A stretch of 64,000 nucleotides of DNA, taken from NCBI GenBank assembly GCA_024679065.1, contig JAGIQG010000009.1, forward strand, positions 85,932,001 to 85,996,000. The letters are read 5' to 3'. Origin of the DNA: Sphyrna mokarran (lineage: Eukaryota). The position numbers and the translations under genes are program-made. Of the stretch, positions 22,177 through 62,909 are shown in pieces; position 1 is the first letter of the stretch; each line of letters opens with the position of its first letter. Under the pieces are notes generated by a model that saw nothing but the letters and a program-made list of their open reading frames with translations, ran no database searches and was not told the DNA's origin.

Positions 22177-22190
22177 ATGACCCAGTAAGT
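22177..22190 (+). pseudogene. Displaced 3' end and splice donor of the alpha2 exon
   Basis: ATGACCCA|gtaagt directly follows the CR1 tail. Removing the CR1 restores GAT CTA TGA CCC A|gt (phase 1). Confidence 0.65.
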
Positions 22191-22993: not shown

Positions 22994-23209
22994 GTAAGAA
23001 CAACAGGAGGGGCGGGGGGATGGGTGTTGGAGGGAAGAAAGGAATACATTGGGTATCACTGACTGTAGTGGCAGGAGACACTGAGAATCAGTGACACTGG
23101 GATGGGGACCACTTTGTTTCAATAAGATAGAAAATGCTATTTAATCAATTCTCATCTCTGCTTTAAATTCTAACAGCCACATATCTGTACATTTGCCAGT
23201 ATGTTTCTC

Positions 23210-28700: not shown

Positions 28701-28782
28701 TAATTGAAGTCTCTCATTCTCTGATGTGTGTCTGTGTGTGTGTGTAAATTCTCGCTATCTCCTTCCCACTATTTGGTGATCT

Positions 28783-31195: not shown

Positions 31196-31657
31196 ATAGT
31201 TTACACCCAGTAGTGTAATCACTACTTTATTGCTCCCATCGCTCTGTCCAGTTTGATTGTAATTTGCCCCCCTCCAGTACATTACCTTTTTCCAGTTTCT
31301 GTGATCAGTCCTCTCACCCATGTTTGCCTCTTGAGAAACCTGCTGCCTCCCATCACTATTGCCGCAAGTCCATTCTGAGATATTGTCAGGATTAATCTCT
31401 TCCGTAGGTGATGAGAAAGGACTTTGGAATGATAAGTAATTCCAATAAGCTGCATTTATTTAATCCAGATAAACATCCCAAAATGTTTCACAGGAATGTA
31501 ATCCCAGTCACACTGAATCTTTCTAATCTACATAATGCTATGCTTAGACTTTCCATCACGTCACACACTGGAATCAGTCTGGAACAGGGTTTGATACAAT
31601 GGTTTCTGAATGAGCAGACACTGGAGTTATTCATTGATCTTCTCATTCCCTATACAG

Positions 31658-33370: not shown

Positions 33371-34739
33371 GTAAGCTTAGGATTCTAAGCTTTTCACATT
33401 CAGAAAAGCTTAGGATGAAAGTGTGATATAGGTGTGAGATTGAAGAGCAGGCTGATTTAAAATCACTTCAAACACACAATTCACTGCGTTGTTTTGTAAA
33501 AATGAGTTGACTGAAGAAACACGTGATGTTCAGTGTAGAAACAGAAGATTGAGATAATTAGATCCCTCTCTGAAACTACCACTGAGTGAGGATATATGAG
33601 CAATAACAAGAGCAAAAACATCCAGAGCCACAATTGAGATTGCATTTTCCGGCTGCATTTTAAATTTTTCACTACCGTGTTGTGTTAATTTCTGTAACAC
33701 AATGAGTATTCAATCCAGTTTTAATAAAACATGGAACTGTTCTTTGTGTCTGTTTCTCATTCCATTCAGAAAGCTGTTTAAAACCCAGCCTCGCAGGACT
33801 AATGAGAAAAGCCAATACCATAAGCTGTACCATAGAATCCCTACAGAAACCATTTGGCCCATCAAGTCTGCACTGATTCTCCAAAAGAGCATCTTACCAG
33901 GCTGGTCCACTGCAATAGCAGTAACTCTGTGTGTTTACCATGGCCAATCCACCTAACGTACATATGTCTGCACATTTATGATTCAATTTAACAAAGAACA
34001 AAACAGTACGGGAAACAGGCCCTTCGGCCCAACGAGCCCGTGCTGCCACCTCAATGTTCCCACTTCTACCCGTGATCCCTGTCTACGTTTATAGATCTAT
34101 GGATCTCCTTCTGCACTTTAGCATGGTCAATCTATCCAAGCTGTATATCTTTGATGCATATAGTTTGGTGTGCTGACTTCCCTTTTAGAGTATGAACCAG
34201 GTGACCTACAGGCTATTGGTTCCATCTGGTGTCGGGCGCTGTGGACAATCTCAGAGCTGACTGCAAATGAGTGCAGATCTTCAATAAACAGCTCCCAGTA
34301 TTCCCAGTACCTAAGATTCTTTGCGAAGTGTAGGTTTATTTATTAGTGCATAAGTAGGTTGACAACACACTGCTGTGAAATTTAGCTTTGTGCAATTCCT
34401 CCTTGAAATTTCTCCGCTCATTTGTGTACCCAAACAGGCTACTATAGTGTGCGGCTTGCGTTTGCAAATCATTAATCAAGTTGCCACAGCTCGCGGTGCC
34501 TGTTGCGTCGGGTACCTGTAGGAAAATTTGCATGATCAATTAAGCCGCTCAAGCTCAACGTGTCTTTCTGGAGCTGTGGGAGGAAAACACCTTACACACG
34601 CAGACAGTGTAGGCAAATGTGGCAGACTGTCGTACTGACAGTAAACATAGAATCCATTGCAAGCGTCAGAACAGGCGTCCCACGTGGGGGGGATGACTGC
34701 CTCGATTTTCCGTGCCAGGGTTATGGCTGTACCGACCTT

Positions 34740-34770
34740 NNNNNNNNNNNNNNNNNNNNNNNNNNNNNNN
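34740..34770. other. Assembly gap
   Basis: Run of N. Confidence 0.99.
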
Positions 34771-35929
34771 TTCCCCTCACCCCTGTGCTACCACAAGTAC
34801 CCATACGCATGCTCAGATACGGACATGTTATCTCCAATACATTACTCCTCTTTACCCAGCCTTGACACTGTATGTAACTGATAACAGTGCGAAAGCAACA
34901 CCTAGCCTCAAAGTCCAGGAGGAAGTCAAACTCATCAAGTGTGTTCTGCTTGTATACAGTCTTCCTGGTGGGATACTTAATTGCAGAGGGAATAAAACTC
35001 CAGAGTGTTGGCTCTTTAATCATTCATGAGATGCAAATAGCATTCTTGACATAGCTGTATGGTCTTTAACCCATCATGAAAATAGGGTACAAAGATTCCA
35101 AACTGACTTCTTGCCACTAGGAGTCTGATTTCTGATTTTCCATCAAATCTTTGCTATTCTACCTGCTACAATTTCTGCTGCTGCTGAGAATGGAAAGTTC
35201 TGTCCACTGATTCATACATTGATTTCATTCTGGGGCTTGTTTGCAATACTGATTTAACAGTTAAATCTCATTCATTATTTGTGAGGGGAAGGGGAAAGAT
35301 TCAATAGAGCAATGATTCAGATCTCCATCTCTCAGCTGCTGGCTCTCAAATGCACAGTTGGGGTCTGGGAGTCCAACTGCACCAAGTCCAGCTGGTTTTT
35401 GCTGATTAAGTCCATGGGGCCTCGGTTCTGTACCATGTGGACAGCCTTAATTCTGCAGTAGGTGGGGGTGGGGAGCCTATTGAAGGGATCTGCTTCATAA
35501 GATTGTCCCGGGAAAAGCAAAGTGATTGGGAGGTACAACACAGTACAGGATACAGGCCCTTTGGCCTAACAAGCCCAAGCTGCCACCTCAACATTCCCAC
35601 TTCCACCCCTGAGCCTTGTCTGTGTTGACAGAAATCTGCATTGAAACCAAATTGATTTATGTTCCGTGACTTTACATAACACAGTTTTTGCTTGAGTAAT
35701 TGGGGATTGGAAAGGAGTACTTGGTTATGCTTTGCAAAAGGTGATTTAATTTGTATTTGCTATTTTATATTAAGTTCTAATAAATTAGATTTGGACTCCA
35801 AATCTGTCTTTGTCAAATGTATCTAACAAATAATAAGGAACATTCAAATCTTGTAACAATCAAATTCCCCAAGTATCTCAGTGTTTAATATTAAAAGTGT
35901 GATTTATTTCAAACTTGTCAGAATGGATG

Positions 35930-38270
35930 GAAATCAAGAAATGGGAGGGAGGAAGTTGAGAAAATTACAGTCAGCAGGAAGTGCTTTTGAGAAAATTGGA
36001 ATTGTGGACTGAGAACCCCAGGCCATTATGGATTTCATTCTATAATCTTGAAAGAAATGCTTCATAAGATGATTGATGCATGAGTTTAAATCTTCCAAAA
36101 TTCCCCAGATTCGGAGGTTTATATTAAATTAGAAAATTACAAATATAATTCCTTTGTTCAAAAGGGGAGACAGAAAGCAGGAAACTACAGGCTAGTTAGT
36201 CTAACATCTGCCATGGAGAAAACGTTAGTCATTATAGAAAAAGTTGTAACCAGATGCTTAAATTCAAACAATCAAGCAGAGCCAACATGGTTTTGTGAAA
36301 AAGAAAATTCTGTTTAAACACTTGTATTGAAGTTCCATGTAATATGGGTAAAGAGAAATTGGTAGATATACTATTTGGATTTCTAGAGACATTTGATAAG
36401 GTGCCATATCAAAGGTTATTGTAAATCAAAGCTCATGGTGTGTGGGTAATATATGCATGAATTGCAGATTGTTTCCTGTTAGTTTAACCAGTTGGTATAA
36501 ATGGGTCTTTTTCTATTTGGCAGGAATGAATTGTGTACCATGGATCAGTGCTGGGCCTCAACTTTTTACAGTGTATATATAAATGGATAAATCTTGATAA
36601 ATTTGCTCATTGCTTATGTGTCAAAGCAGACATTGAGGATGTTACAAAGGGATATGTCAAATGGAAAGTTTCCATTTTTTGGTGGGAATTAATAAAAGTA
36701 ACTTTATTGAAATTGTTATAAATTGCAGAGCTGATATGCACATAGGAACACTAACAATGTTATTTATTTTGAGGGGAAATTCCTAATTACAAAGTTAGGA
36801 AGGTTATGCGTACGTTGTAAAGGCATTGGTGAGACCACATCTGGAATATTGTATTGGTTTCTTTATTTAAGAACAAAGAACAAAACAGCACGGGAAACAG
36901 GCCCTTCGGCCCAACGAGCCCGCGCCGTCACCCCGATGTTCCCATCTCTACCCACGATCCCTGTCCATGTTTATAGATCTATGGATTAAAAACCAAAATT
37001 GAAACAATTTAGGGAGAATTTCTTTTGCCAATTAGCCTAAGAGCACATCTTTAGGATGTGGGAGGAAACCGGAGTGCCCGGAGAATGCGCAAACTCCCAC
37101 AGACACAGGCCCAAATCCATGTATCTGCACAGCACAGCAATAGTCACTGAGCTGTTGTGTTGCCCATCAAATGGTCCAGGTCAAGTGTACACTAACGACG
37201 TGAAGCACCAGGATACTCTCAAAAGATCCAAGAGCTGCCCTCTCATGACCCATTGCGTGTATGCCCCTCATTAGACAGCAAGGTGGACCAAAGCACCTGT
37301 AGGATAAAAACAAGTACATCAATATCATCATCTATTTACACACTTCCCAGGGACTCCCAAGGCTCATGATCCCTATTTTAAATCAGTTTTCTATACCTCT
37401 CCATTCCCATTCTCTTCATGTGCCCATCTGAGTATTTCTTAAATAACTCCAGAGTACCTGCCTCCACCACTTTATTTGGCAGTGCATTCCACACCCCCAC
37501 CACCACCTGTGTGAAAAAACTCCCTCTAGCATCCAAATTATACCTTAGCCCCCTCACCTAAGCCCGTGACCACTCGTGCTATTTGAGTCCATCCTAGGAA
37601 AAAGCTTAACCCTGTTTACACGATCTATCCCCTTCATAATCTTGTACACCTCTATTAGATCTCCTCTAAGTCTACGTCTTTCTAAGGAAGACGGTCCCAA
37701 TTTGCCTAATCTCTCCTCATAACTCAGATCTTCCATACCAGGCAGCATCCTGGTAAACCTCTCTGCACTCTCTCCAGAGTCTCCACGTCCTTCTGGTAGT
37801 AAGGCGACCAGAACTGGACAAAAAGATGTAAAAGGCTTTACAAGCAGTTCAGAAAAATGTTTACTGGATTAATACTAAGAATGGGTAAATTGTGTTATGA
37901 TAAAAGGCTGGAGAGGTTTTGTGTATCCAGGAGAGTTTCGAAGAGTAAGTGACAAATTGAGCCATACACGGAGAAAATGTTTCCTTACAGGAAAATCTAG
38001 AACAAGGTCACTGATTTACAGATAAGGATATTTAAGATTGAGATGAGGCAAATGTATGTCTCTCATAGTGAATTCAGTCTCTGGAACTCCCTTTTCAAAA
38101 GGCAGTGGAAACAAAACCTTTGAATCTTTTTATTAACAAGGGGGTGAAAGGGATTGGGGATGGACAGGAATGTGGAGTTGAGGTTGCAATCAGAAGCCAC
38201 AATCTTAGTGACTGAGCGGGCTTAAGAGGCCAAATATCCTATTCCTGTTCTTAATTCATATGATCATAGC
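35930..38270 (+). mobile_element. Old decayed CR1 hosting the 36870-37820 insertion
   Basis: GNYR, QHGF, FDKVP and LVRPHLEY remnants; continues after 37820. Confidence 0.75.
36870..37820 (-). mobile_element. Truncated CR1 with SINE-containing 3' UTR, inserted antisense into an old CR1
   Basis: ORF 37554-37748 plus the same UTR architecture. Confidence 0.93.
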
Positions 38271-39529
38271 AGCAAGTGTCAGAGTAAAACACAAGCATTA
38301 TCAACAAAGGTAAATGCTGAATTTAGTGATGAAAAACTGACCTTAATTAATGCCAAAGAAACAATAAATCATGCAAAAATAAAATATTCAACCGCAGGAC
38401 ACGAAATGGGAGGTTGATGTCGAGACAGTTGAAGTCCAAACAAAAATGCAGATTGAATTTTAGAGACTTTTGAAAAGGGACTAACAAAGAGGAAAAGGTC
38501 AGCAACATTATAGGATAGAAAAGTGCAGAAGCAAAGCTAGGGGTTCACGTATACATTAAATAAAACCTGATCTGCTTGCATTGTCACATTCAAATTAATG
38601 AGAAAATCCCCAATGTTGCTTCAATATTTAAGATTTGGAGGAATAAATGAGGCAGGTATGGACCTATTGGTCTCACATTTAGAGTAAATGAGCATTCGGA
38701 CAAGTATGATTATCAGAGATCCCAAAGTGAACAAAGTACAGCAATAGGAACAGGCCCTTTGGCCCTGAAAGATTTAGTTAGATCGTGCTGCCCTAACTAA
38801 AAAAAACCCAGCCTTTACTCGATCTGTATCCCTCTATTTCCTCCCTATTCACGTATCCATCCAGATGTCTTGTAAATATTGGTAACGTGCCTGCTACCAC
38901 TTTATTGTCTGACAGCATGTTCAAGGCACCCGCCGCTCTGTGTGGAAAAACTTCCTCAAACTTTCTCCCCTCACCTTGAACCTGTGCCCTCTTGTAATTG
39001 ACCCTACCAATCTTGAAATAAGCTTCTAACTATCCTGTTTATACCTCATAATTTTGGAGACTCTATCAGGTCATTATCAGCCTCCGTCTTTCCAGTGAAA
39101 ACAATCTTAGTTTATTCAACATCTACTCATACCCAACATCCTCAAGGCCAGGCAACATCTTGATGAATTTTCTTTGCACTCTCTCCAAAGTTTCCATGTC
39201 TTTCGGATAGTGTACCAAACAGAACTGCATCCAATAACTCTAAATGCAGCCTAACCAAGGCTTTATATAGCTGCAACATGATTTCCGATTTCCCAACTCC
39301 TGTACTCAATGCCCAGGCTGATGGGGGCAAGCACACCATATGCCTTCTAAATTACCTGGGCCATCTGTATTCTTCGAGTGAACTATGGACCTGCATGCCC
39401 AGATTCCTCTGTAAATGTTCTACCATTTTACAGTATAATTCACAATTAAATTTGATCCTCTAAAATGTATCACCTTATATTCATCTGGATCAAATTCCAT
39501 CTGCCATTTCTGTGCCCAAATCTCCAATT

Positions 39530-39928
39530 AAACGAAGAACAACACAGCACGGGAAACAGGCCCTTCGGCCCAACGAGCCCGCGCCGCCGTCCTAACGTCT
39601 TAATGACATATAGAGACCAATGTAGGGACAATTTGTTACCCAATCAGCCTAAGAGCACATTTTTGGGATGTGGGAGGAAACCGGAGCACCCGGAGAAAAC
39701 CCACGCAACCACGGGGAGAACGCACAAACTCCCGCAGACACAGGCCCAAATCCATGTGTCTGCACAGCAACAGCGATAGTCTCTGAGCTGTCATGTTGCC
39801 CATCTGATGGTCCAGTTTAAGCATACACTAACGACATGAAGCACTAGGCCACTCCTGAAGTAATATCCAAGAGCAGCCCTCGCACGACCTGCCGAATGCA
39901 TGCACCTCGTTGGTCAACAACGTTGGTC
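39530..39928 (-). mobile_element. 3'-UTR-only copy of the SINE-containing CR1
   Basis: Matches 40790-41225, lacking about 40 bp. Confidence 0.88.
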
Positions 39929-40162
39929 AATTTATCTACAATTCTCTTCTATCCTCTGACAATCCTCGGCACTATCAGCAACTCTTGCCAATCTTTGTGT
40001 CATTTGCAAACTTACTAATCAAACAACCACATTTTCCTCCAGATCATTTATATACACTACAAACAACAGAGATCCCAGCACTAAAACCCTGCAGAATACC
40101 ACTAGCTACAGATTTTCCATTCTGAAAAATACCCACCGCTATTCTCTGTCTTGTAGAGCCAA

Positions 40163-40359
40163 GATGTGGAAATGCCTATGTTGGACTGGAGTAAAAACAG
40201 TAAGAAGTCTCATAATACCCAGTTAAAGTCCAACAGATTTATTCGGTAGCACAAGCCACCAGGTTTCAGAGCGCTGCTCCTCAGTCTCACCTGATGAAGG
40301 AACAGCGCTCCGAAAGCTAGTGGCTTATGCTACCAAATAAACCTGTTGGACTTTAACCT
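40163..40359. mobile_element. Palindromic Penelope-like pLTR element
   Basis: Arms at about 40221-40282 and 40297-40357 are reverse complements. Confidence 0.8.
40288..40322 (+). ncRNA. Minimal type I hammerhead ribozyme motif
   Basis: cac-CTGATGA-aggaacagcgctcc-GAAA-gcta-gtg: intact core, short stem II, palindromic AGCT in place of stem III. Confidence 0.75.
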
Positions 40360-40787
40360 TGTATAACCAAGCCAGCTCGGTGTCCATCTAGCCAGCCCAC
40401 ACCAAGTCCCATCTGATTTTAATTTTTCTATCAGTTTGCCATATGGGACTTTGACAAACACTTAATAAAGTCCATATAAATATCCACAACCCTTTTCTCA
40501 TCAATTATCTTTGTCACCTTTTCAAAAAACTCAATGATGTTGGTGAGACATGACTTTCTTTGTACAAAACTGTGCCACCTGTCACTAACTGGTCCATTTT
40601 CCTCCAAATGAACATGTATTCTGTCAGTATTTTCTCCAAAAGCTTCCCCACCACTGAAGTCAGGTTCACCAGCCTATAATTTCCAAGATTATCTCTGCCT
40701 TCCTTCCTAAACAAGGGAACAATATTGGCCGTTCTCCAGTCCTATGGAAGCTCACTTGTGGTCAAAGACGATGGTATGGTATCTGTT

Positions 40788-42830
40788 AAGAACAAAGAGC
40801 AACACAGCACAGGAAACAGGCCCTTCGGCCCAACGAGCCCACGCCGCCGTCCTAACGTCCTAATGACATATTATGTCTTTAGGCTATGCCTATTGTTGAA
40901 GATTCCCATGTAGGGACCAATATAGGGACAATTTGTTACCCAATCAGCCTAAGAGCACATTTTTGGGATGTGGGAGGAAACCGGAGCACCCGGAGAAAAC
41001 ACACGCAACCACGGGGAGAATGCGCAAACTCCCACAGACACAGGCCCAAATCCATGTGTCTGCACAGCAACAGCGATAGTCTCTGAGCTGTCATGTTGCC
41101 CATCAGATGGTCCAGTTTAAGCATACACTGACGATGTGAAGCACTAGGCAACTCCTGAAGCAACCTCCAAGAGCAGCTCTCGCATGACATGCTGCATGCA
41201 TGCCCCTTGTTGGTCAACAAGGTGGACCAAATTGGCTGCGGAAACAATAAGACTTAATTAAACATGCTAAAAAAAAACTAAGACATTCCCGAGACAAAAC
41301 TAAAAATAGTCTACTACTATTTGGTCCTCTCGGTATTCAAACAGTCCTCCTATATCCCTCTATCTGCAGACCGCTCATGTGGCTGTCCAAGAGAACCCTT
41401 AAACAATCCTAGCGTGCCTGCTCCCCCACCTTACTCGGCAGTGCATTCCACACCCCACTACCCTTTTGTGAAAAACTGGCCTCTAATATTCGTCTTGTAC
41501 ATAGCCCCCCTCACCCTGAGCCCGTGACCCCTCGTTCTATCCATTTCTAATGGTGGAAAAAGCTTACCACCATTTATTCTATCTATACCCCTCATAATCT
41601 TATATACCTCTAAAAGATCCCCTCTCAGCCGGCGTCTTTCAAGGGAAAACAACCCCAGTGTTTTCAATCTTTCCTCATAAGACAGCCTTTCCATACCAGG
41701 CAGCATCCTGGTAAATCTCCTCTGCACTCTCTCCAGGGCCTCTACATCCTTCCTGTAGTACGGCGACCAGAACTGGACGCAGTACTCCAGATGAGGCCTA
41801 ACCAACGTTCTATACACCTGCAACATCAGACTCCTACTCTTGTATTCTATCTCTATACTCTGGATAGTTTTACCTTTTACCCTATAACTCCCGTCTACAT
41901 TATTCTGGCCAAAATGCATCACCTCGCATTTATCCGGATTAAATTCCATTTGCCATCTATCTGCCCAATCTACCAGCCTATCTATGTCATGTTTTATTGC
42001 CAGGCACTGCTCCTCAGTACCTGCCAATCCAATCATCTTAGTGTCATCAGCAAATTTGCTGATCACACCACCTACCCCCTCTTCCAAGTCATTTATATAC
42101 ACACAAATAGAAGGGGTCCTAGTACAGAGCCCTGTGGCACACCACTAGTGACAGACCTCCAGTTGGAAAAACAGCCTTCCACTACTACCCGCTGTCTCCT
42201 CCTCCCAAGCCAGTTCTCAACCCATCTACATACCTGCCCTGTATACCATGCGCCTTCACTTTTCTATCAGCCTACCATGAGGACCTTATCAAACGCCATC
42301 AAAGGTCTGAGCTGTTTCTCTGCTTGCCTCCTGCAGTAACCTAGGATAGATCCCATCCAGCTTGGGGACTTGTCTACCTCAGTGCAATTTAGGATGTCCA
42401 TCATTTTCTTCCTTTGATATACTGACATTCTCTCGAGCGTTGACAAACCTATTCCTGTCCTCAGCATCTGTCATATCCTCTTTGGTGAACACCGATACAA
42501 AATACTTATTAAGAATTTCACCGACTTTCTGTGGTTCCATGAAAAACTTCCCTCCATTGTCCTCGAGTGGGCCTACTCTTTCTCTTGCTACCCTCTTGCT
42601 CCCAATAAATGCATAAAAAGCCTTGGGATTTCTCCTTGACCCTGTTTGTTAACAACAGGTCATGGCCCCTGTTAGCCCTCCAAATTCCATGTTCAAGTTC
42701 CTTTCCATTTTTACTGTACTCAACAGTTTCTTCAGTTTTTAGATGCCTTGACCTATTGTACGCTTCCTTTTCCCTTTTGGCTAAGTTTACAATTTCCCCT
42801 TGTCATCAATGGTTCCCGAATCCTGCCATT
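40788..42830 (-). mobile_element. CR1 (sister subfamily) with SINE-containing 3' UTR and two internal deletions
   Basis: ORF 41458-42102; deletions near 41850 and 42300; UTR 40788-41340. Confidence 0.92.
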
Positions 42831-43428
42831 TCATCAACTTCAGGAAGCGTAAAGAAGAACGTTTACATCAATGGGGACAAAGTAGAAAGCATCTAGAGCT
42901 TCAAGTATTTAGGTGTCTAGATCACCAAACCTGTCCTGCTCCCCGTATGTCAACACTCCAGTTAGGAAAGCCCACCAACATGACTATTTTCTCAGAAGAC
43001 AAGAAATTTGGCATGTCAACTATGACTCTCACCAACTTTTACAGATGGACCATAGAAAGCATTCTTTCTGATTGTATTACAGATTGGTACGTCTCCTGCT
43101 CCGCCCGAGATTGCAAGAAATACAAAAGGTCATGAATGTAGCCCAATCCATCACGCAAACCAGCTCCCATCCACTGACTCTGTCTATACTTCCAGCTGGC
43201 TCAGTAAAGCAGCCAACATATTTAATGATCCACCCATCCCAGATATTCTTTCTTCCGCCTACTTCCTTTGGAAAAAAGATATAAAAGTCTGAGGTCACGT
43301 ACCAACTGACTCAAGAACATCTTCTTTCCTTCTGCTGTCAGGCTTTTGAATGGACTTATCTTGCATTAAGCTGATCTTCCTCTACACCCTAGCTATGACT
43401 GTAACACTACACTCTGCACTCTCTCCAA
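42831..43428 (+). mobile_element. Rex1/Babar-like LINE fragment
   Basis: TLTNFYRWTIESILSDCITDWY; QKVMNVAQSIT. Confidence 0.82.
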
Positions 43429-43859
43429 TGTGTCCACCCTCAGTACAGTTGTGATCTCCTCCTTAATCAGCAATGCAACTCTGCCACCCTTTTGTTTCCC
43501 TTTCTGTCCCATCTAAAACAAAATATATCCCACAATATTAAGCTACTAGTTTTGTCGCTCCTTCAACCATGTGTCTGTAAATTGCAATTACATTCAACTC
43601 AATGCAGTAATCCAGCTCTCAGTTCATCTGTTTAACCTGTTATACTTTTTGCATTGAAGAAAACACATTCTAGACCTACAATCCTGCCGAGTCCTGTGGC
43701 TTCCTTTTGCCTGCTCTTACTCTGTGTTATGTTTATCTCAGTCTTACTTTTTTCCCCAGTTTCTGTACTTACTGGCTTGTGTTTGGTCAGGATTCCAAGG
43801 AGAATTCTCCTGCCCCTGAAAATTGTGCGTAAAAACATATTCTGAGTGCAACAGGGCTT

Positions 43860-43980
43860 CAGTTTAACATTTTATCTGAAAGGGAGCACTTCCAACAGTG
43901 CAGCACTCCCTAAGTGCACTGACAGTCTAGATTCTATATTCAACATCCTGATTTAGAACTTGAGTTTACAACTTTCAGTC
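43860..43980. mobile_element. Possible Deu-domain SINE remnant
   Basis: CTGAAAGGGAGCACTTCCAACAGTGCAGCACTCCCT resembles the DeuSINE core as I recall it; not aligned. Confidence 0.5.
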
Positions 43981-43984
43981 CTTG

Positions 43985-44250
43985 CGACTTTCCTCCACAG
44001 CTTCCAATCTCATAGTCTATCAATGCCATACAGTCCGCTTCCATCTCTCCCAAAGATTCATGAACAGGATTGTCCCAGGAGGCCCATCAGATCCATCAGG
44101 AGCCAGTTCCTGCCCCACTGAACTCAACTCTTATCTTAATTCCAGCCTCTCTCCTCTTGATCAGTCCCTTCCCAACTATATCCACAATTCCTCTGATGCC
44201 CTAATCACATCAACTGTTTCCTGTCCCGTGGCCCAAACAGCCTCCTGTTT
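43985..44250 (+). mobile_element. Penelope-like RT N-terminal remnant
   Basis: PKIH..DCPG.P...SCPTELNSYLNSSLSPLDQSLPNYIHNSSDAL, read across frameshifts. Confidence 0.65.
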
Positions 44251-44256
44251 ACTACA

Positions 44257-44562
44257 GCGGCACAGTGGTTAGCACAGCTGCCTCACAGCACAAGGGATCT
44301 GGGTTCGATTCCCAGCTTGGGTCACTATCTGTGTGGAGTTTGCACGTTCTCCACGTGCCTGCGTGTGTTCCCTCCGGGTGCTCTGGTTTCCTTTCATACT
44401 CCAAAGATGTGCTGGTTAGGTGGATTATCCATGCTGAATTGCCCCTTGGTGTCAGGAAGATTAGCTAAGGTTTGGGGTTTTTGTGTTAGGGTCTGCGTGG
44501 AATTGTTGTCGGTGTAGACTCGATAGCCAAATGTCCCCTTTCTGCACTACAGGTTTCTACGA
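44257..44562 (+). mobile_element. HE1-type SINE
   Basis: B box GGTTCGATTCC; V-domain. Confidence 0.88.
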
Positions 44563-44752
44563 TAATCTTTGAAAACAACATAGACCTCTAATTCCTCTAC
44601 ATCTCCATTCCTCAGCGTAGTTTGAGCACTCTCCATTTCTTCCGGAATTGAACCTAGTTCTTACAACTGTTTGAATTCTGTGAGCCTTCTTAATTACATG
44701 TTGCACTCACATGTTATTTTGTCGTGAACCATGAAGTATTTCCACACATATC

Positions 44753-45310
44753 AAAGAACAAAGAATGACACAGCACAGGAAACAGGCCCTTTGGCCTTAC
44801 AAGCCCACACCACCATTTTAACATTCAATGAGTGCCTCATTCCAATCCTTCTTTTACCTGTGAATTTTGCCTACACCTCTTGGACTCCACAATAAAGGTC
44901 TGCAAATTTGGAGAATTATATGTGTGCCAGATTGAGGGAAGTCCAATTTAGGGACAATTTGTTAATACCAATCAGCCTAAGAGCACGTTTTTGGGGTGTG
45001 GGAGGAAACTGGAACACCTGGAGAAAACCCACGCAAGCACAGGGAGAATGTGCAGACTCCCACAGACACCGACCCAAGTCGGAGATCCAACCCAGGTCAC
45101 TGAACCTGCACAGCAAACAGTGATAGTTACTGAGCTGTCATGTTGCCCATCAGCTGGTCCAGTTTAAGAATACACTAATGACGTGAAGAACTAGGCAACT
45201 CTCAAAGCAACATCCAAAGGCAGCCCTCGCATGACACACTGCATGTATACCCCTTGTTGGCCAACAAGGTAGACTGAATCACCTGTGGATGTAAAAAAAG
45301 TCATCAATAA
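44753..45310 (-). mobile_element. 3'-UTR-only copy of the SINE-containing CR1, variant with a fuller tRNA head
   Basis: Same architecture; keeps the B-box-region segment (GACCTGGGTTGGATCTCCG on the minus strand) that the other copies lack. Confidence 0.85.
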
Positions 45311-46077
45311 ACATTTCTTTGTTCCCCCATAATAAATTCCCTTATAAGGGACCTACATTTGTCTTCACCAATCTTTTTGTCCTCACATACCTGTAGAAAC
45401 ATTTAGTCATTTTCTCTTTTCAATCAATCCCTTTATCTTCCTTTGCTGAATTCTAAACTTCTCCCAATCCACAGGTCTGCTGTTCTTTACTGACCAATTT
45501 GGATGTTTCTTCCCTGCATCAAATATTATCTCTAATTTCCCTTGTAAGTTATGATTTGACCAAGATTTCTATTTTTCTGTTATGCTAATAGGAATGAACA
45601 ATTGTTGCAGTTCCCCCATGCACTCTTTGAACGTTTGCCATTGCCTACCCACCGTCATCCCTTTAAGAAAAGTTCCCCAGTCTACCGTACCCATTTTGAG
45701 CCTCATATCACTGCATTCATTTAGATTTAGGACCCTCAACCCACAATCAATTTCCTCACTCTCCATCTTGACTAAGAATTTAATCGTATGATGGCTGCTC
45801 AGCCCCAAGTATTCTTGCACAACTAGATTGCCAATTATTCCTTTCTCATTACACAATACTCATTCTACAATTGCTTGCTCTCTAGTTGGTTCCCCAGTAT
45901 ATTAGTCCTGTATACACTCCAGAAATTCCTCCTCTATGGTATTGTGAAGAATTTGATTAGCCCAATCTACATGCAGGTTAAAATCACCCATAATGACAGA
46001 TATTCCTTTATCACATACATCTCTAATACCTGTTTAATGCCGTTACCAAAATTACCACTACAGTTTGGTAGTCTATG

Positions 46078-47790
46078 TAAGAACATAAGAACATCAGATA
46101 CAGGAGCAGGAATAGGCTATCTAGCCCCTCGAGCTAGATATATTCAGTAAGGTAGCCTCCACCACTTCAACTGGCAGAAAATCCCAAAGATTCACCACCC
46201 TCTGAATGAAGAAATTCCTCCTCAACTCCGACCTAAACCACCCCCCCCCCCCCCCTATTTTGAGGCTGTGCCCACTTGTACTGCTATCCTTTGTAAGTGG
46301 AAAGAAAATTTCTACCTCTACCCTATCCATCCCCTTCATTATCTTATTTGTCTCTATAAGATCCCCCCTCAACCTTCTAAACTCCAACGAGTACAAACCT
46401 ATTCTTACTCAATCTCTCCTCATAGGCTAACCTCTTCATCTCCGCTATCAGCCTAGTGAATCTTCTCTGTATTCCCTCTAAGGCCAGTATATCCTTCCGT
46501 AAATGCAGTGACCAAAACTATACACAGTACTCCAGCTGCGGCCTCACCAGCACCCTGTACAGTTGCAACAAGACCTCCCTACTTTTATATTCTATCCCCC
46601 TCGCTATAAAGGCCAACATTGCATTCACCTTCTTGATAACCTGCTGCACCTGCAGACTGGGTTTTTGCGATCGTGCACAAGGATCCCCAGATCCCTCTGC
46701 AGTGTAGCATGCTGCAGCTTTTCGCCTTTTAAATAATAATCCCTCCTACTATTATTTCTACCAAAGTGGATAACCTCTCACACTTGCTAATATTATACTC
46801 CATCTGCCAGGTCCTCCCCCACTCAATCAGCCTATCCAGATCCCTCTGCAAGCGTTCCACACCCTCCATGCAATTTGCTTTTCCATTCATCTTCGTGTCA
46901 TCAGCAAATTTTGTAACCCTACACTCAATTCTTCCTCCAGATCATCTATGTAAATGGTAAACAGTTGAGGCCCCAGCATCAATCCCTGGGGCACTCCACT
47001 AGTCACCAACTGCCAACCAGAATAGCACCCACTGAGTCCTACTCTCTGCTTCCTATTAGACAGCCAATCCTCTATCCATGCTAATACCTTGCACCTTAAC
47101 TTTTGCAGCAAACATTTGTGAGGCACCTTATCAAATGCCTTCTGGAAATCTAAAACCACCACATTCACCGGTTCCCCTCTATCTACCGCACTAGTCACAT
47201 CCTCATAGAAATCCAATAAATTCATCAAACACGATTTCCCCTTAACGAATCCGTGCTGCATCTGCTTGATCAAACAGTTCTTTTCTAGGTGCCTCGCTAT
47301 TTCTTCTTTGATAACAGATTCAAGCATTTTTCCGACTACAGACGTTAAACTAACTAGCCTATAATTCCCTGCCTTTTGCCTGCTACCTTTTTAAAACAGC
47401 AGCGTAACATTAGCCGTTTTCCAATCTTTCAGCAGTTCCCTGGAGTCCAGCGAATTTTGATAAATAATTACTAAGGCATCCGCCATCACCTCTGCCATTT
47501 CTTTCAGAACCAGGAGATGCATTCCATCCGGTCCTGGGGACTTGTCTACCTTCAGGCCCCTTAGTCTATCAAGCACTACCTCTCTAGTGACAGTAATCGC
47601 ATTAAGGCCCTCATCTCCTACATCCTTTGATCTTTAATGTCCGGCAAACTATTTGTGTCCTCCTCCGTGAAGGCCGACACAAAAAAGTTGTTTAAAGCCT
47701 CAGCCATTTCCTCATCACCTCCCGCTAAAATCCCCCTCTCATCCTCCAAGGATCCAACATTCACTTTAGTCAGTCTCCTCTTCTTTATAT
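46078..47790 (-). mobile_element. CR1 LINE RT region, frameshifted
   Basis: ORFs 46121-46396, 46887-47327 (QHGF, DFQKAFD, GVPQG) and 47391-47576. Confidence 0.92.
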
Positions 47791-49050
47791 ATTTTACTGT
47801 CTTTTTTTTATATTTAGATCCAGTTTAGCCTTATACTCTATCTTTCCTTTTCATTATCACCTTCTTAGTCATTCTTTGTTGTTGTTTAAAATTTCCCAAT
47901 CTTCTAATCGCTCATTATTTTCAGCCGCTCTGAACGCATCAGCTTTTAATTTAATACTCTCCTTTATTTCTTTCGGCAACCACGGCTGATTTCCCCTTCT
48001 CCTTTAGCCTTTCTTCATCAACGGAACCCCCATTGATGTTTTTTGCCCTGATGTTTCTTAGCTCTACCCATACAGATGCAATATTGTCAGAGCCAGTATC
48101 ATTCCTCAGAATAATGTTAATTTTCTCCTTCACTACAAATGCCATTCCATTGTCTTTCCCTTTTTGTCCAACCTTCCTAAATACTGAATACCCTTGGGAA
48201 TCCTGGGCACTCTGCAGCCATGTCTCCATAATCCTTACTATATCAGACACATTTATATCTGTTTGCATGATTAATTCATCCAATTTATTGTGAACACTCC
48301 ATGTGTTCAGTCACGAAGCCTTCAGGCTCATATTTTTAACATTTCTTATCCTGTTCCCATTATTTTTCACAGTGGCCCTTGTTTATTCCTGGCTCTTGAT
48401 TTCTCTGCCCATCACTTTTCTTATTCCCCTTTCCATCTTTTGTTTTTGTCCTTGATTTTTTCCTCCTCTGAATCTTTGCATCGGTTCCCAACCCTGCTGC
48501 CACTTTAGTTTAAACCCTCACCAATCTTGCTATCTTTGTGATCCTACTTTTCAGCTTGCTTTCTACCTCCCTATCTACTGCTTTTAGGACCTTATCCCCT
48601 ATTGTAGCCAGTGGTGTTTGTACCAATGTCCACATGACCACTGACTACCCCTCAGAATGTCCTGTAACTGCTCTGAGATGTCTTTGACCCTTCGCACCAG
48701 GTAGATAACATACCATCCTAGAGCCCTGCTTGTGGCCACAGAAACACTACCTATCCCCCTTACTGAATTCCCTATAACTATTGCATGTTTACCCATTTTG
48801 CCCCTTCCCTGTGCAGTAGAGCCAATCATGGTGCAATGAATTTGACTGTTGCTGCATTTCCCTAAAAACCCATCCCACTCAAAGCGGTATATTTGCTTTG
48901 GAAGGGAATGATCACGGGAGATTCCTGCACTGTCTGCCTAGTTATTTTCCTCTCCATGATGGTCATCCATTCCTTCCTGCTTTGTGGAGTGTCGCCTGTG
49001 ATATGACCATCTCTCTATATATGTTATTTGATAGCCTTCACCTTCCAGAT
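47790..49050 (-). mobile_element. Old CR1 5' portions: endonuclease and ORF1 esterase remnants
   Basis: 47951-48283 IMETWL...VWVELRN; 48599-48829 AIVIGNSVRG...VKDISEQLQDIL (GDSL/SGNH-like CR1 ORF1). Confidence 0.75.
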
Positions 49051-50352: not shown

Positions 50353-52470
50353 CAAAGAACAAAGAACAAAACAGCACAGGAAATGGGCCCTTCGGCCCAA
50401 CAAGCCCGCGCTGCCACCTTGATGTTCCCACTTCTACCCATGATCCCTGTCTATGTGTATTGATCTATGCATTGGAACCAAATTTGCGAGACAATTTAGG
50501 GAGAATTTGTTTTGCCAATCAGCCTAAGAGCACATCTTTGGGGTGTGGGAGGAAACCGGAGCACCCGGAGAAAACCCACGCAAGCACGGGGAGAATGTGC
50601 AAACTCCCACAGTCACAGGCCCAAATCCATGTATCTGCACAGCACAGCGATAGTCACTGAGCTGTCGTGTTCATCAACTGGTCCAGGTCAAGCGTACACT
50701 AACGACGTGAAGCACTAGGATACTCTTGAAAAAGATCCAAGAGCAGTCCTCTCACGACCCATCGCGTGTATGCCCCTCGTTAGACAACAAGGCGGATCAA
50801 AGTACCTGTACGATAAAACAGAAATACATCAATATCATTGTCAATTTAAACACTTCCCAGGGAACTTCCAAGGCTCATGATCCCTATTTTAAATCAGTTT
50901 TCTATACCCCTCCATTCCCATTCTGTTCATGTGCCCATCTAAGTATTTCTTAAATAACTCCAGAGTACCTGCCTCCACCACTTTACTTGGCAGCGCATTC
51001 CATACCCCCACCACCCTCTGTGTGAAAAAACTCCCTCTAGCATCCAAATTATATCTTACCCCCTTCACCCTAAGCCCATGACTCCTTGTGATATTTGAAT
51101 CCATTCTTTGAAAAAGATTAATCCTGTTTACTCTATCTATACCCCTCATAATCTTGTACACTTCTATTAGCTCTCCTCTAAGTCTATGTATTTCTGAGGA
51201 AAACAGCCCCAATTTGCCTAATCTCTCCTCATAACTGAGACCTCCCATACCAGGCAGCCTCCTGGTAAACCTCCTCTGCACTGTCTCCAGAGTCTCCATG
51301 TCCTTCTGATAGTAAGGCGACCAGAACTGGACGCAGTATTCCAAATGAGGTCTAACCAATGTTCTATACAACTGCAACATTAAAGGCCAGCTCTTGTACT
51401 CTATATCCCTTCCTATAAAGGCTAGCATACCATATGTTTTCTTCACAACCTTCTCCACCTGCTCTGCCACCTTCAGAGACTTGTGCACCTGCATTCCCAG
51501 GTTCTTCTGCGTTTCTATACTCTTAATAGGTCTACCCTTTATCATATACCTCCCCCCTACATTCTTTCTCCCGAAATGCATCACCTCACATTTATCAGGA
51601 TTGAGTTCCATCTGCCATCTATTTCCCCAAGCTACCAGCCTATCTATGTCCTGCTGCATCGCCTGGCAATGCTCCTCACTATTCGCAAGTCCAGCCATCT
51701 TTGTATCATCTGGAAACTTGCTGATCACTCCACTTACTCCCTCTTCCAAGTCATTTATATATATTACAAATAGAAGAGGTCCCAGTACCGAGCCCTGCAG
51801 CACACCACTAGTGACTGACCTCCAGCTAGAAAAACACTCTTCCACTATTACTCTCTGTCTCCTATTACCAAGCCAGTTACTTATCCATCTAGCTACCTGT
51901 CCTTGTATCCCATTAGTCTTGACCTTTTCAACTAACCTCCCATGAGGGACTTTGTCAAATGCCTTTCTGAAATCCATATAGACAACATCAACGGCTCGCC
52001 CTTCGTTGACCGTTTTAGTCACCTCCTCAAAAAAGTCTGCCAGATTTGTAAGGTACAACCTCCTCTTAACAAATCCATGCTGCGTATCTCTAATCAGATC
52101 ACAACGCTCTAAGTGCCCATACATCCTACCTCTAAGAATCCCCTCCAACAGCTTCCCTACCACTGACGTCAAACTCACTGGCCTATAATTTCCAGGGTTA
52201 TCCCTACTACCCTTTTTAAACAACGGTACAACATTAGCTATTCTCCAGTCCTCTGGGACCTCACCTGTGTCCAAAGAAGAGACAAAGATTTGCGTCAGAG
52301 GCCCAGCAATTTCACCTCGCACCTCCCTAAGCATCCTGGGATAAATGCCATCAGGCCCCAGAGATTTATCAGTTTTAATGCTACCTAGAAGCTCTAGCAC
52401 TTCCTCTCTCGGTATGGATATTTCCCTCAACTGGTCCACAGCTCCCTCAGAGACAGGAGCTATCAACTGC
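50353..52470 (-). mobile_element. CR1 LINE with a long SINE-containing 3' UTR (RT ORF open)
   Basis: ORF 50889-52553 (its first ~30 aa come from flanking DNA); UTR as in 61673-62217. Confidence 0.96.
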
Positions 52471-55052: not shown

Positions 55053-55330
55053 AATTAAATTAAGAAGACAGGTTACACAGACTGAGCTTGCAGTGAATAA
55101 TGGAACTGTACCATCCAGTTTCACCTCTGTAACATCACCCAACCTCACCCTGTCTCAGCTCAACGACTGCTGAAATCTTCACTCCTGTTTCCATTACCCC
55201 TGGAGCTGTCTATTCCAACATACTCCCACCTTTTAACCTAAGTACACTAGAGGTCATTCAAAACTCAGCAGTCTGAATCTGAACCCGGGCCTGTCACTTG
55301 AGAATTGCTGACAGGTTGACAGATGCTGAC

Positions 55331-55630
55331 AGGGGCAGCACGATGGCACAGTGGTCAACACTGCTGCCTCACAACACCAGGGATGCAGGTTCGATTCCGG
55401 CTTGGGTGACTGTGCAGAATTTGCACATTCTCCCCATATCTGCATGGGTTTCCTCTGGTGCTCCAATTTCCTCCCACATTCCGAAAGATGTGCTGATTAG
55501 GTGCATTGGCCATGCTAAGTTCTCCCTCAGTACACCCGAACAGGTGCCGAAGTGTGGTTACTGGGGGATTTTCACAGTAATTTCATTGCAGTGTTAACGT
55601 AAGCCGAAATAAACTTTAAACTTTACTTTG
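55331..55630 (+). mobile_element. V-SINE with alternative tail
   Basis: Full tRNA head (GGTTCGATTCC), V-domain, same tail as 570-642. Confidence 0.85.
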
Positions 55631-56504: not shown

Positions 56505-57571
56505 TGGGAGGAACATGAACAGGGAACATCATCTCAAAATGAAACCTCAGCCATTCTGGAGAGTTGCCTATGCCAATATCCGTGCTGCTCTTACTTGCTC
56601 CTAATATGGGTTTTATGCTGTATTGCTCCATTCCACCACTGCTCCTTTTTTCTCTTGAGTTGTGGTGGAGTTTCCAGCCTGTGAAAGCTTTACACTTGCA
56701 TTCAATTTGGTTATCTTTGTGAAAGCAGTCAAGTTGTTTCCTGGTAGAGAGAGATCAAGAATCTCTTCTCTGCACCTTGTTATGGTGGTGTTAGTCAGAC
56801 TGTATGGAAGCAGTGTAGGTGCTGATGGCTGGATGTTAAGAGGTTGACAGTGAGGTACTGACTGAGAAGAAACACCTTGGTTGGATCTTTGAGTCCTCCG
56901 TTGTGAATATTCTTGCAGCATTGCTTCTGATTTCTAGACACTAGGCTGATGGAGATGGTAGGTTAGATAAGATGGAGATTAGTCCAGCTACATGGTGCGA
57001 GTTTTTTGTTGTAGGTAGAGTGGGTCTCACAAAGATTTCCTGAGTCTTGTGTAGTTGAATATTAACTGATGGCACATAACATTGTTCTGGGTACAGTCTA
57101 AGCTACACACAACTTCCATGCTTGTATCTACATGGGTCTCTGTCCAGTCCAGGTAAGGTGTCACTTTGCATCATACTGTGGATGATACTGTTTTCCAATC
57201 CCACATTAACCATTGCAATGCCAATTACCCATGCACATCTCTGTGATCTCTTGTTCAAATGATGAAGTAACTGAGAAAATACTGGTTTTTGTAGCATGGA
57301 TGTTTCTATAGGATCTTCTGATAGTCTCACTGCCAGAACAGGGTGTGGCTTATGAGAGGGTCATGTTCTGGACATTTTAACATGAAACTCACTCTGTTGG
57401 AGTTTACTTTCCCAGCACCTTCATTGTCTATCTCCCATCCAAAGATTCATATTCTTCCTCATTCAATTGAAATTTCCGAGGAGGTTCAGGTGGTCACCTG
57501 TCGAGTCTCAGATTAAGGATTGCTCAGGATCAGCATTTTAATCCTTTCTTATTCTGGTTTGTTGCATGAAG

Positions 57572-58074
57572 TCATGATGTAGAGATGCTGGCATTGGACT
57601 GGGGTAAACACAGTAAGAAGTCTGACAATACCAGGTTTAAGTCCAACCGATTTATTTGATAGTAAACACACAAGCTTCCGAGGTTATCCTCTTTGTCAGG
57701 TGAATGAGGTGTTCTGGTCTCAGACAGCACATATAACAGCACAGACTGTTTACAGATTACTGATTAGACTTGAATAGCAGGTTAGGTGTAAAGATTTGCA
57801 TTCTAATCAGTAATCTGTAAACAGTCCGTGCTGGTATATGTGCTATTTGGGAAAAGAACACCTCATTCACCTGATGAAGAGGATAACCTTGTGATAAACA
57901 TGGATAGGGATCGCGGGTAGAGGTGGGAACATCGGGGTGGCAGCGTGGGCTCATTGGGCCGAAGGGCCTGTTTCCCGTGCTGTTTTTTGTTCTTCTTTAT
58001 AACTCGGAAGCTTGTGAGTTTACTATCAAATAAATCGGTTGGACTTAAACCTGGTGTTGTCAGACTTCTTACTG
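57572..58074. mobile_element. Large palindromic Penelope-like pLTR element with a nested CR1 tail
   Basis: Arms at about 57610-57765 and 57800-58074 are inverted repeats; flanking TTGTTGCATGAAG direct repeat; CR1 tail at about 57891-57998. Confidence 0.82.
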
Positions 58075-58383
58075 TTGTTGCATGAAGAGAAGGAGTGTTA
58101 GCACTGATGACAATGATGTGCTGGTTCCTCAGTAGGGTGATTTGGGCAATCATGGATCCCTCACTTATCTCACAGGGGAGTCACTAAGGCTCCAGAGGAG
58201 TTCAGTTTTGATAGTGAAGTCCACTCCATGGGGCATCATTCATCTTCTGGAAAATCCTTCCAGAAAAAGGTGTACACACTACCTCGTTCCATCGGTTAGC
58301 ATTCTTCTGTATGTCTCTTAAGTACCGAATGTAGAATACTCAATGTTATACAGTGAAATTTGCAGACTTGTCCATGAACTATT

Positions 58384-60160: not shown

Positions 60161-60789
60161 CTTCTATATTGTTATAAGGTGTGGGATTAGGAATAATGTG
60201 GAGTTCACTGCACTACATGAGCTTGGTTCTCTGTTTGAAATTCAGCTCCCTTCATAATCCCAGTTCTCCTGATTGCAGACCAGCTTCTTTGGCCACAAAC
60301 CTGTCTCAGTTTATTTTCTATTCATCCAGAGGCTGTGGGTGTTTCTAGCTGAGCCAACATTTATTGACCATCACTAATTGCCCATTAATTGTGTAGCTTT
60401 CCCAGGGCACATGTAGACCAGAGCAGGTAAGAACGGCAGATTTCTTTCCTCGAAAGACATTACTGAACCAGTTTGGTCTTTACAACATATGACAATGGTT
60501 TCATATCATCATTAGACTTATAATTCCAGACTTCTTTTGCACTCAAATTTCACCATCTGTCATGGCGGGATTCCCACTTAGCTGCCCAGAACAGTAGAAT
60601 CATAGAATCAGACAGTATCTTCGGCCCATCGAATCTGTACCGACGTGCAAGAAACACCTGTTGCAGCATTTTACAGCCTAGTTCATCATAAAATAGTAAA
60701 ATCCTGCCTGAGGTCAACAGACTTTCTCATTGTCCGCCTCTCACCTGCTCCAATTCCTGAGAGTAAAATTCCGGCCCTGAACTGCCACC

Positions 60790-62217
60790 ATTTGTAATAT
60801 ATATAAATGATTTGGAAGAGGGAGTAAGTGGAGTGATCAGCAAGTTTGCAGACAATACAAAGATGGCTGGACTTGCGAATAGTGAGGAGCTTTGTCAGGC
60901 GATGCAGCAGGACATAGATAGGCTGGTAGCTTGGGCAGATAGATGGCAGATGGAATTCAATCCTGATAAATGCGAGGTGATGCATTTCGGGAGAAAGAAT
61001 GTAGGGGGGAGTTATATGATAAAGGGTAGACCTATTAAGAGTATAGAAACGCAGAGGGACCTGGGGGTGCAGGTGAACAAGTCTCTGAAGGTGGCAGAGC
61101 AAGTGGAGAAGGTTGTGAAGAAAGCATATGGGATGCTAGCCTTTATAGGAAGGGGTATAGAGTACAAGAGCTGGCCTTTAATGTTGCAGTTGTATAAAGC
61201 ATTGGTTAGAATTTATTTGGAATACTGCATCCAGTTCTGGTCGCCTTACTACCGGAAGGACATGGAGACCCTGGAGAGAGTGCAGAGGAGGTTTACCAGG
61301 ATGCTGCATAGGATGGAAGGTCTGAGTTACGAGGAGAGGTTAGGCAAATTGGGACTGTTTTCCTTAGAAAGATGTAGACTTAGAGGAGATCTGATAGAGG
61401 TGTACAAGATTATGAGGGGTATAGATAGAGTAAACTGGGTTAAGCTTTTTCCTAGGATGGACTCGAATAGCACGAGGGGTCACGGGCTTAGGGTGAGGTG
61501 GGTAAGGTATAATTTGGATGCTAGAGGGAGTTTTTTCACACAGAAGGTGGTGGGGGTATGGAATGCACTGCTAAGTAAAGTAGTGGAGGCAGGCACTCTG
61601 GAGTTATTTAAGAAATACTTAGATGGGCACATGAACAGAATGGGAATGGAGGGGTATAGAAAACTGATTTAAAATAGGGATCATGAGCCTTGGAGTCCCT
61701 GGGAAGTGTGTAAATAGATGATGATATTGATGTACTTGTTTTTATCTTACAGGTGCTTTGGTCCACCTTGTTGTCTAATGAGGGGCATACACGCGATGGG
61801 TCGTGAGGGGGCTGCTCTTGGATTTTTTTTCGAGAGTATCCTAGTGCTTCACGTCGTTAGTGTACGCTTGACCTGGACCATTTGATGGGCATCATGACAG
61901 CTCAGTGACTATCGCTGTGCTGTGCAGATACATGGATTTGGGCCTGTGTCTGTGGGAGTTTGCACATTCTCCCCGTGCTTGCGTGGGTTTTCTCTGGGAG
62001 CTCTGGTTTCCTCCCACATCCCAAAGATGTGCTCTTAGGCTAATTGGCAAAACAAATTCTCCTTAAATTGTCTCAAATTTGGTTTTTAATCCATAAATCT
62101 ATAAACATAAATCTATAAACAGGGATCATGGGTAGAGGTGGCAACATTGGGGTGGTGGCGTGGGCTCGTTGGGCTGAAGGGCCTGTTTCCTGTGCTGTTT
62201 TGTTCTTTGTTCTTTGT
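60790..62217 (+). mobile_element. CR1 LINE with a long SINE-containing 3' UTR
   Basis: ORF2 end 60812-61672; structured segment 61760-61879; V-SINE-derived segment about 61887-62050; hairpin plus (TTCTTTG)n tail. Confidence 0.95.
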
Positions 62218-62909
62218 TTGTTTAATCCCATCTACCAGCATTCGACTCACAGCATTAAATATTATGATGTGCCAGATACTTTTTAAAGAATGTGAGGCAA
62301 CTCGCTTCTACCATCCTCCTGGGCAGCGCATTCCAGACCATCACCATCTTCTGTGATAAAAAGTTTTTCCTCATATCCCCCTAAGCTTCCTGCCCCTCAC
62401 CTTGAACCTATGCCCCATCATGACTGACCCTTCAACTCAGGAGAATAGCTGCTCCTTATCGGCTTTATCCATGTCTCTCATTATCTTGTACACATCGATC
62501 AGGTCGCCCCTCAGTCTTGACTATTCCAATGAAGACTGTCCAAGTCTACTCAACCTCTCTTCATAGCTGTTCCACCCCAGGCAGTATCTTGGTGAATCTC
62601 TTCTGCACCCTCTCAAGTGCAATCACTTTCTTCTAATAATGTGGTGACCAGAACAGCACACAGTACTCCAGCTGTGATCTCAGCAAAGTTCTACACAACT
62701 TCAATATGATTTCACTGCTTTTGAAATTTATGCCTTGATTGATAATGTGTTCAATATGTTTTTTTTTCACCTACTAATATGTCGTTCCATCTTCAGAGAT
62801 TGATGGACAAACATACCCTTTGTTCCATACAACTTCCTAGTGTCATGTCATTCATCGAGAACTTCCTTGTCAAATTATTCCTTCCAAACTGTATCATCTC
62901 ACACTTAAA

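Follow-up and report, generated by a model that had tools for sequence, protein, structure and literature searches.

LINE consensus sequences with embedded SINE fragments, e.g., variants of BovB, occur in mammals and reptiles, where the SINE is propagated as a passenger by a LINE lineage; a literature search for such cases gave no confirmation, and the SINE part of such BovB-type passengers is not known to be under selection. In sharks and rays, the V-SINE HE1 and the CR1 element HER1 form a SINE-LINE pair (PMC3747384; HE1 as V-SINE, PMC4824008), in which the SINE borrows the 3′ end of the LINE and moves in trans. HE1 consists of a tRNA-like head, a conserved core, a CR1-type stem-loop and a microsatellite tail. 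A V-SINE that was captured and spread by another mobile element, with loss of independent transcription, is described for the MITEs MER6/MER6A (PMC6887750); there, the carrier is a non-autonomous DNA transposon without an RNA step, and in the portion of that paper that was available the authors see the variability as speaking against selection. Sense SINE-LINE fusions, attributed to template switching or RNA ligation, are known from chimeras of Alu or small RNAs with LINE-1 (bioRxiv 2025.02.02.635956) and from L1-BovB (PMC6036668). As far as the accessible text goes, the Alu/LINE-1 and L1-BovB chimeras are individual insertions with the truncated LINE part at the 3′ side, and no propagating lineage with a SINE in its 3′ UTR is described. 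The bipartite SINE bodies of Kojima 2018 (PMC5786205) likewise imply that modules are exchanged between the UTRs of LINEs and the bodies of SINEs, with a flow that runs mainly from the LINE 5′ UTR to the SINE (RTE, Vingi); recombination is suggested to have brought a Ceph-like piece into the 5′ UTR of an Ingi LINE, and the text covered contains nothing like the present case. According to a 2016 paper, such conserved SINE domains had not been found in LINEs. A literature search, with many subscription papers outside its scope, did not turn up any V-SINE within a CR1 3′ UTR; no such SINE-in-LINE case is reported in the covered portions of PMC5499810, PMC11481361 and PMC13343379. The CR1 consensus set of the latter is deposited at Zenodo, and its supplement gave no match to the module motif discussed below.

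The window, i.e., the whole 64-kb stretch of DNA that was analysed, contains a CR1-like LINE lineage that falls into three subfamilies (A, B, and C) and is represented by six long copies as well as four 3′ stubs. Its 3′ UTR consists of a spacer, a splice-acceptor-like motif, a 120-nt hairpin module, a tRNA-like head, a V-like core, a linker, a terminal stem-loop and a (TTCTTTG)n tail. The free SINEs of the window have the build of HE1. Unlike in HE1, however, head and core are here part of the UTR of the LINE itself, where they follow an open ORF2, and their Pol III boxes are broken. In contrast to MER6, they are carried by a retrotransposon that encodes protein, and the subfamilies have conserved the core. 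The capture is a variant of SINE-LINE module traffic, and what is new is a core that is conserved inside a coding LINE.

The reference copy of subfamily A, c6 (60790–62216, + strand), is a 5′-truncated element with 293 open ORF2 codons (60791–61672) up to the stop codon TAA at 61670–61672. Its UTR of 545 nt begins with the spacer (61673–61752), in the last part of which lies the candidate acceptor-like motif (61727–61752: a branch-like pentamer, a pyrimidine tract, and CAG), followed by the structured module (61760–61879), the tRNA-like head (61887–61944, aligned with eight free SINEs), the V-like core (61945–62049, assigned by its likeness to the free SINEs of the window), the last SINE-like ~20 nt and the variable linker (62050–62153), the CR1-type terminal stem-loop (62154–62198) and the (TTCTTTG)n tail (62199–62216), all on the + strand. 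The SINE-less CR1s of the window have UTRs of ~95–100 nt (~95 nt in the subfamily at 4584–5930), so that the difference in UTR length claimed by the first-pass annotation holds at both ends. An antisense CR1 appears to be the host of c6, which would lie in its 3′ end (60590–60790 and 62217–62745); the tail of this CR1 is of the GATTCTAT type, as in the free SINEs, and a further piece of ~130 nt adjoins it.

A BLASTN search of the window with 61673–62217 returned five further long copies with 78–89% identity over 312–549 nt, and when aligned all six are colinear, with the SINE in sense orientation and at the same position in each of them; the shared layout that had been recognised from the sequence at first reading is thereby confirmed. 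Subfamily A comprises, besides c6, the longest copy c5 (50353–52470, − strand; 532 open ORF2 codons), c1 (36869–37820, −), which has a private 23-nt deletion in the core, and three stubs at 33990–34104 (−), 35535–35655 (−; closest to A) and 57906–57994 (+). The latter is hosted by an element with internal inverted repeats (57570–58079). Subfamily B consists of c3 (40788–42297, −) and c2 (39531–39926, −), which begins at the module, and subfamily C of c4 (44752–45310, −), which retains the B-box region, together with one stub (6587–6685, +) that shares 86 of 97 aligned bases with it. The start of c3 had initially been placed at 42830; it lies at ~42297 instead, and 42300–42830 is part of an older host CR1. 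The copies c2 and c4 lack ORF2, as had been stated, and both are inserted in the ORF2s of older CR1s. Three subfamilies can indeed be distinguished, but linkage to ORF2 is seen only in A and B, since C has just one long copy and this copy is without ORF2. Seven of the ten lineage copies are on the minus strand; this bias was considered as a sign of acceptor use and rejected, since other CR1s of the window share it. The window is repeat-rich, with 47% of it made up of repeats shared within it, and includes a run of 31 N (34740–34770), i.e., an assembly gap.

The lineage exhibits the traits of the CR1 clade: a CR1-type reverse transcriptase, a 3′ stem-loop with a short tandem-repeat tail without poly(A), frequent 5′ truncation and short or absent target site duplications (TSDs). 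The ORF2 of c5 matches Pfam RVT_1 (E 6e-28), and the named relatives of the c6 ORF2 are reverse transcriptase proteins of Mobula (55% identity), Chiloscyllium (53%) and birds (38–48%); the ray and shark matches point towards a cartilaginous fish. None of the copies in the window is full-length. Relative to c6, c3 has an internal ORF2 deletion of ~110 nt (window 41850–41860, −; BLAST gap at query 258–368). Divergence between the ORF2s of A and B amounts to 0.20, 0.14, and 0.36 at codon positions 1, 2, and 3, respectively; since positions 1 and 2 are more conserved than position 3, the masters of the two subfamilies encoded an ORF2 under selection. An ORF2 scan of metagenomes yielded 80 loci at 29–57% identity, none of which matched the UTR or a free SINE beyond 18–20 nt. 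Among the sequencing runs listed, four of 23 hold at least half of the words of 60790–62217, under three organism codes, with ORF2 accounting for 62% of this stretch; since the best run may be the source of the window itself, these figures carry no weight as evidence here. Elsewhere in the window, a 372-codon open frame (30344–31459, −), without a Pfam match at E 0.01, lies directly upstream of the SINE-less CR1 at 28741–30373 and is probably the N-terminal part of its ORF2. A 176-codon frame (11049–11576, −) has a weak GIY-YIG match (E 0.002, below the cut-off) and is possibly a Penelope-like remnant. Two exon-like frames (14553–15149 and 22693–23091, both +), with matches to Pfam MHC_I (E 0.0013, below the cut-off) and the Ig C1-set (E 3e-11), probably belong to a gene of the MHC class I(-like) type and enclose, in sense orientation, at least one copy of CR1 (20704–22180, +).

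That the SINE is propagated as part of the LINE, as first proposed, is borne out by c3, in which ORF2 and UTR form one unit inside the older, SINE-less CR1 H (38720–42830, −; short UTR, TTTG-type tail), which is broken by c2 and c3. When a 966-aa CR1 ORF2 is mapped onto 38500–47800, H covers residues 326–496, is interrupted by the insertion, and then continues with residues 473–709, while c3 itself starts at ORF2 residue ~603 near 42300 and ends with the UTR and tail; c3 is therefore a single insertion that carries both ORF2 and SINE, with the host frame resuming beyond it. After the insertion of c2, H resumes at residues 713–959, and c4 interrupts the ORF2 of another CR1 whose frame is recognisable on both sides. 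The old CR1 at 38720–43770 (−) nests c2, c3, and further insertions near 40160–40350 and 42831–43424, and would be useful for ordering the subfamilies in time. In four copies ORF2 is joined to the SINE-bearing UTR, and the SINE is always found behind the module; it is not an independent non-coding unit. ORF2, module, SINE and tail insert together, and the copies are 5′-truncated to different lengths. A convincing TSD was found in one of the six long copies, namely the UTR-only copy c2 (5 nt), and in none of the other five. A 10-nt direct repeat that flanks the cassette in A was rejected as a TSD relic, as the chance expectation is ~0.14 (an estimate), the repeat is absent in B, and it lies within fast-changing linkers. 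The 12 flanks of the long copies (300 nt each) gave no mutual BLASTN match at E<1e-3; the copies are therefore not segmental duplicates, which had been named as a way in which the proposal might fail.

The embedded core, a putative V domain of a likely V-SINE by its likeness to the core of the free SINEs in the window, has a mean identity of 0.77 to the free copies and of 0.91 among the embedded copies. The eight free SINEs compared share one common core and have two different tails; those at 8312–8576 and 55326–55605 (+) combine this core with a tail that is not of the CR1-hairpin type. The embedded head is homologous to the free heads as well (0.57 identity), but its Pol III boxes, read against the A and B box consensus, are broken: the A box carries changes, and a shared 18-nt deletion has taken the B-box region out of A and B, whereas C keeps this region in altered form. 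ARAGORN finds no tRNA in the embedded head. A gain of new hairpins by the dead head was considered as well but found no support, given that the free heads fold equally well.

The shared diagnostic changes in the SINE, which were likewise claimed at first reading, amount to 27 of 147 comparable columns, in which the embedded SINEs have a common state unlike the majority of the eight free copies; a column was counted if at least four of the five embedded copies aligned, always including C, agree against the free majority. Some of these 27 states could derive from a donor SINE family that is absent from the window. A tree built from 14 ORF2 fragments of the window unites the ORF2s of A and B in one clade (bootstrap 97). 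Given the 27 diagnostic states common to the embedded SINEs and the sister relationship of the A and B ORF2s, the simplest assumption is that the SINE was captured once, and one origin, by template switch or recombination, is very probable.

How the SINE entered the UTR can be addressed by means of its 3′ end. Over the last 58 nt, seven lineage members have 66–81% identity to five SINE-less CR1 ends, vs. 52–72% to five ends of the free-SINE/HER1 type, and the SINE-less CR1 H has the same TTTG-type tail as the lineage. Since its terminus is closer to those of SINE-less CR1s, and the tail likewise, the LINE likely kept a LINE-type terminus, and an insertion of the SINE into the UTR ahead of this terminus appears the likelier route. 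The alternative, raised initially, is a replacement of the 3′ end: transcription of a CR1 would have continued into an acceptor, a module and a complete V-SINE lying downstream, reverse transcription would have begun at the SINE's CR1-derived tail, and this tail would have become the new end of the LINE and been retuned later. Read-through at a genomic locus would agree with the intron-exon-like boundary that the captured piece contains, and in subfamily A the distance from core to stem equals that of free SINE bodies: the linker, which measures 77–137 nt from the core end across the subfamilies and 83–91 nt in A, is matched by a body length of 83 nt in two free copies. Some pairs also show a weak local similarity of the linker to a free SINE (z up to 5, in one of 90 comparisons). 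However, in global tests against four free SINE bodies the linker reaches a z of at most 2.1 (the C linker reaches up to 3.3 against one LINE subfamily). Moreover, both the terminal 58 nt and the tail repeat conform to the SINE-less CR1s in type, and no relic of an earlier stem-loop was seen between the ORF2 stop and the module. Replacement of the 3′ end is therefore less well supported and the less probable route, although capture of the whole SINE together with its tail keeps some probability. It is a proposal about how the SINE was captured and does not conflict with selection on the core.

The first-pass annotation had overlooked that the captured head and core are far more conserved than the rest of the element. 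Between the majority of A and c3, 4 of 65 sites differ in the head, 6 of 101 in the core and 5 of 62 in the terminus, vs. 27 of 121 in the module, 93 of 366 in the ORF2 tail, 42 of 79 in the spacer, which is unalignable between A and B, and 27 of 50 in the linker, whereby such majority-versus-copy counts exclude A's private changes and the ORF2 counts include them. In percentages, head plus core differ at ~6–7% of sites between A and B, compared to 42% at four-fold ORF2 sites and more than 50% in both linkers; the sample consists of three, two, and one long copies per subfamily from one 64-kb window, with a single copy representing the ORF2 of B. A direct comparison of c6 and c3 gives 12 differences in 161 sites for head and core, 21 in 50 for four-fold ORF2 sites, and 14% at second codon positions; within A, 11 of 83 four-fold sites differ. 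The contrast between head plus core (10/166) and four-fold sites (21/50) is significant (Fisher p 8e-9). In C, the core has seven own changes in 101 sites, which approximates the copy's own decay, as c4 differs from its subfamily stub at 11 of 97 sites. The C linker resembles neither that of A nor that of B (137 nt vs. 77–91 nt). Constraint is uneven inside the cassette, with changes at 19 of 119 sites in the module vs. 9 of 166 in head and core (p 0.004), a pattern not expected from one wholesale swap.

Conserved blocks between saturated linkers would be the pattern expected from long-term selection on the RNA, the main alternative being an exchange of UTR pieces. Judged from this pattern, the core is probably under selection as a cis-element of the LINE RNA. 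According to the alternative, the SINE was captured once and is a functionless, neutral passenger, and head and core are conserved owing to recent UTR swaps by template switching, with the core as a possible crossover site; that conserved domains might be recombination hotspots is a published hypothesis (PMC5804259, in the part of the text available). If UTRs were exchanged, the ORF2 clock would be invalid for the UTR, and the crossover would lie in the unalignable spacer of B. It fits such an exchange that this spacer cannot be aligned with A's while the acceptor region of C resembles that of A (own changes in 30 nt: four in A, ten in B, one in C), and that own changes of A are overrepresented in its module (13 of 120, vs. 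6 of 227 for the head, core and terminus together). A recent swap of ~190 nt would also account for the dead head, whose conservation between A and B equals that of the core. However, heterogeneity of the A, B, and C changes over the four segments is non-significant overall (p 0.13), the ORF2s of A and B are sisters as under vertical descent, and swaps would be required in all three subfamilies, each sparing three different linkers between the conserved blocks. A neutral passenger maintained by exchange is thus rather improbable.

The second feature that had been overlooked is the acceptor-like motif, which is located just 5′ of the module in all five copies that span the site; the background of acceptor-like sites is 140 of 127,890 positions. 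In B the motif is kept despite ~12 changes in 30 nt, whereas the same number of random changes keeps it in 1.4–3.9% of trials, a hint only, given that the acceptor rule was set after the motif had been seen and that B passes at the threshold. No lineage copy starts at the CAG of the motif. It is rather doubtful that the motif works as a splice acceptor.

The module itself is predicted to fold into a three-way junction with a closing helix, a short hairpin and a long hairpin. Four copies have fold z-scores of −4.5, −2.8, −3.9, and −3.2, and the remaining two, which score −0.1 and +0.2, fold no better than shuffled sequences; the antisense strand gives −1.9 to +2.1 in six of six copies, i.e., the fold is confined to the sense strand. 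A MITE or DNA palindrome, for which a strand-symmetric inverted repeat would be expected, was rejected on these grounds as the source of the module. No two-sided compensatory changes were found in 43 predicted pairs, and pairing is kept by 8 of 12 subfamily changes vs. 5 of 9 private changes, which is no clear excess; the fold thus remains a predicted one, with no clear signal of selection on it. A model search of the window detected only the six copies, and the module always precedes the SINE and never stands alone. Rfam gave no gathering-level match in the window and chance-level scores only for the module copies (one each of A, B, and C), and the module pattern had no matches in metagenome contigs or viral contigs. 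Hammerhead, HDV-like, SECIS, snoRNA and Y RNA identities were rejected by inspection against known motifs and by Rfam, and a coding function was rejected owing to indels between the copies.

Two of the six longer copies begin within ~40 nt of the 5′ edge of the module, and the spacers of A and B are unrelated, as would be expected if module, head, core, and tail were a separate non-autonomous element, with c2 and c4 as full copies, that was fused to CR1 ORF2s repeatedly. But the starts of c2 and c4 differ, c2 lacks a B box and hence an evident promoter, and the lengths of the ten copies (about 100 to 2100 nt) are spread like those of ordinary 5′ truncation; with the A and B ORF2s being sisters and the module never alone in the window, a separate element is very unlikely. 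Finally, independent SINE insertions after LINE integration, or segmental duplication, might be suggested by the frequency of free SINEs and nested insertions in the window, but are refuted by the same SINE position in six of six copies, the 27 diagnostic states, the 18-nt deletion common to A and B and the unrelated flanks, and retain virtually no probability.

Taken as a whole, a lineage that carries and co-copies a SINE head and core, likely after one insertion, with a core likely selected as a cis-element that aids retrotransposition, is, on the sequence pattern, the probable reading. A single capture, through template switching or recombination, would have preceded the divergence of A, B, and C, and the captured piece would already have included both the module and the acceptor-like motif. 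With its Pol III boxes broken, the SINE would then be transcribed only from the LINE promoter, and the UTR-only copies would be ordinary truncations. Selection would act on the RNA, through its stability or its transfer to the protein encoded by ORF2, and not on a promoter. Speculatively, the acceptor could turn the cassette into a spliced terminal exon. The broader proposal that the LINE domesticated the conserved domain of a SINE, with V core, splice acceptor, and structured module forming a selected cis-acting 3′ UTR cassette, is put forward tentatively, as a serious possibility that falls somewhat short of an even chance.

Repeat annotation would split copies of this kind into a LINE and a SINE and thereby miscount both. 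The function of the conserved SINE core is called unknown in the covered part of PMC4824008. Here, the core lies behind a nearly intact ORF2 and the SINE promoter is gone, so that candidate functions of the core become separable: because the promoter is lost and the core is carried by a LINE, its conservation in this lineage is not about Pol III transcription or single-locus exaptation. What it points to is either an advantage that the core confers on the RNA during retrotransposition or an exchange with the core as its site, both of which are testable. If selection on the core holds true, this would be the first conserved SINE domain borne by a LINE, and the domain would benefit the retrotransposon RNA itself, independently of Pol III and of exaptation by the host.
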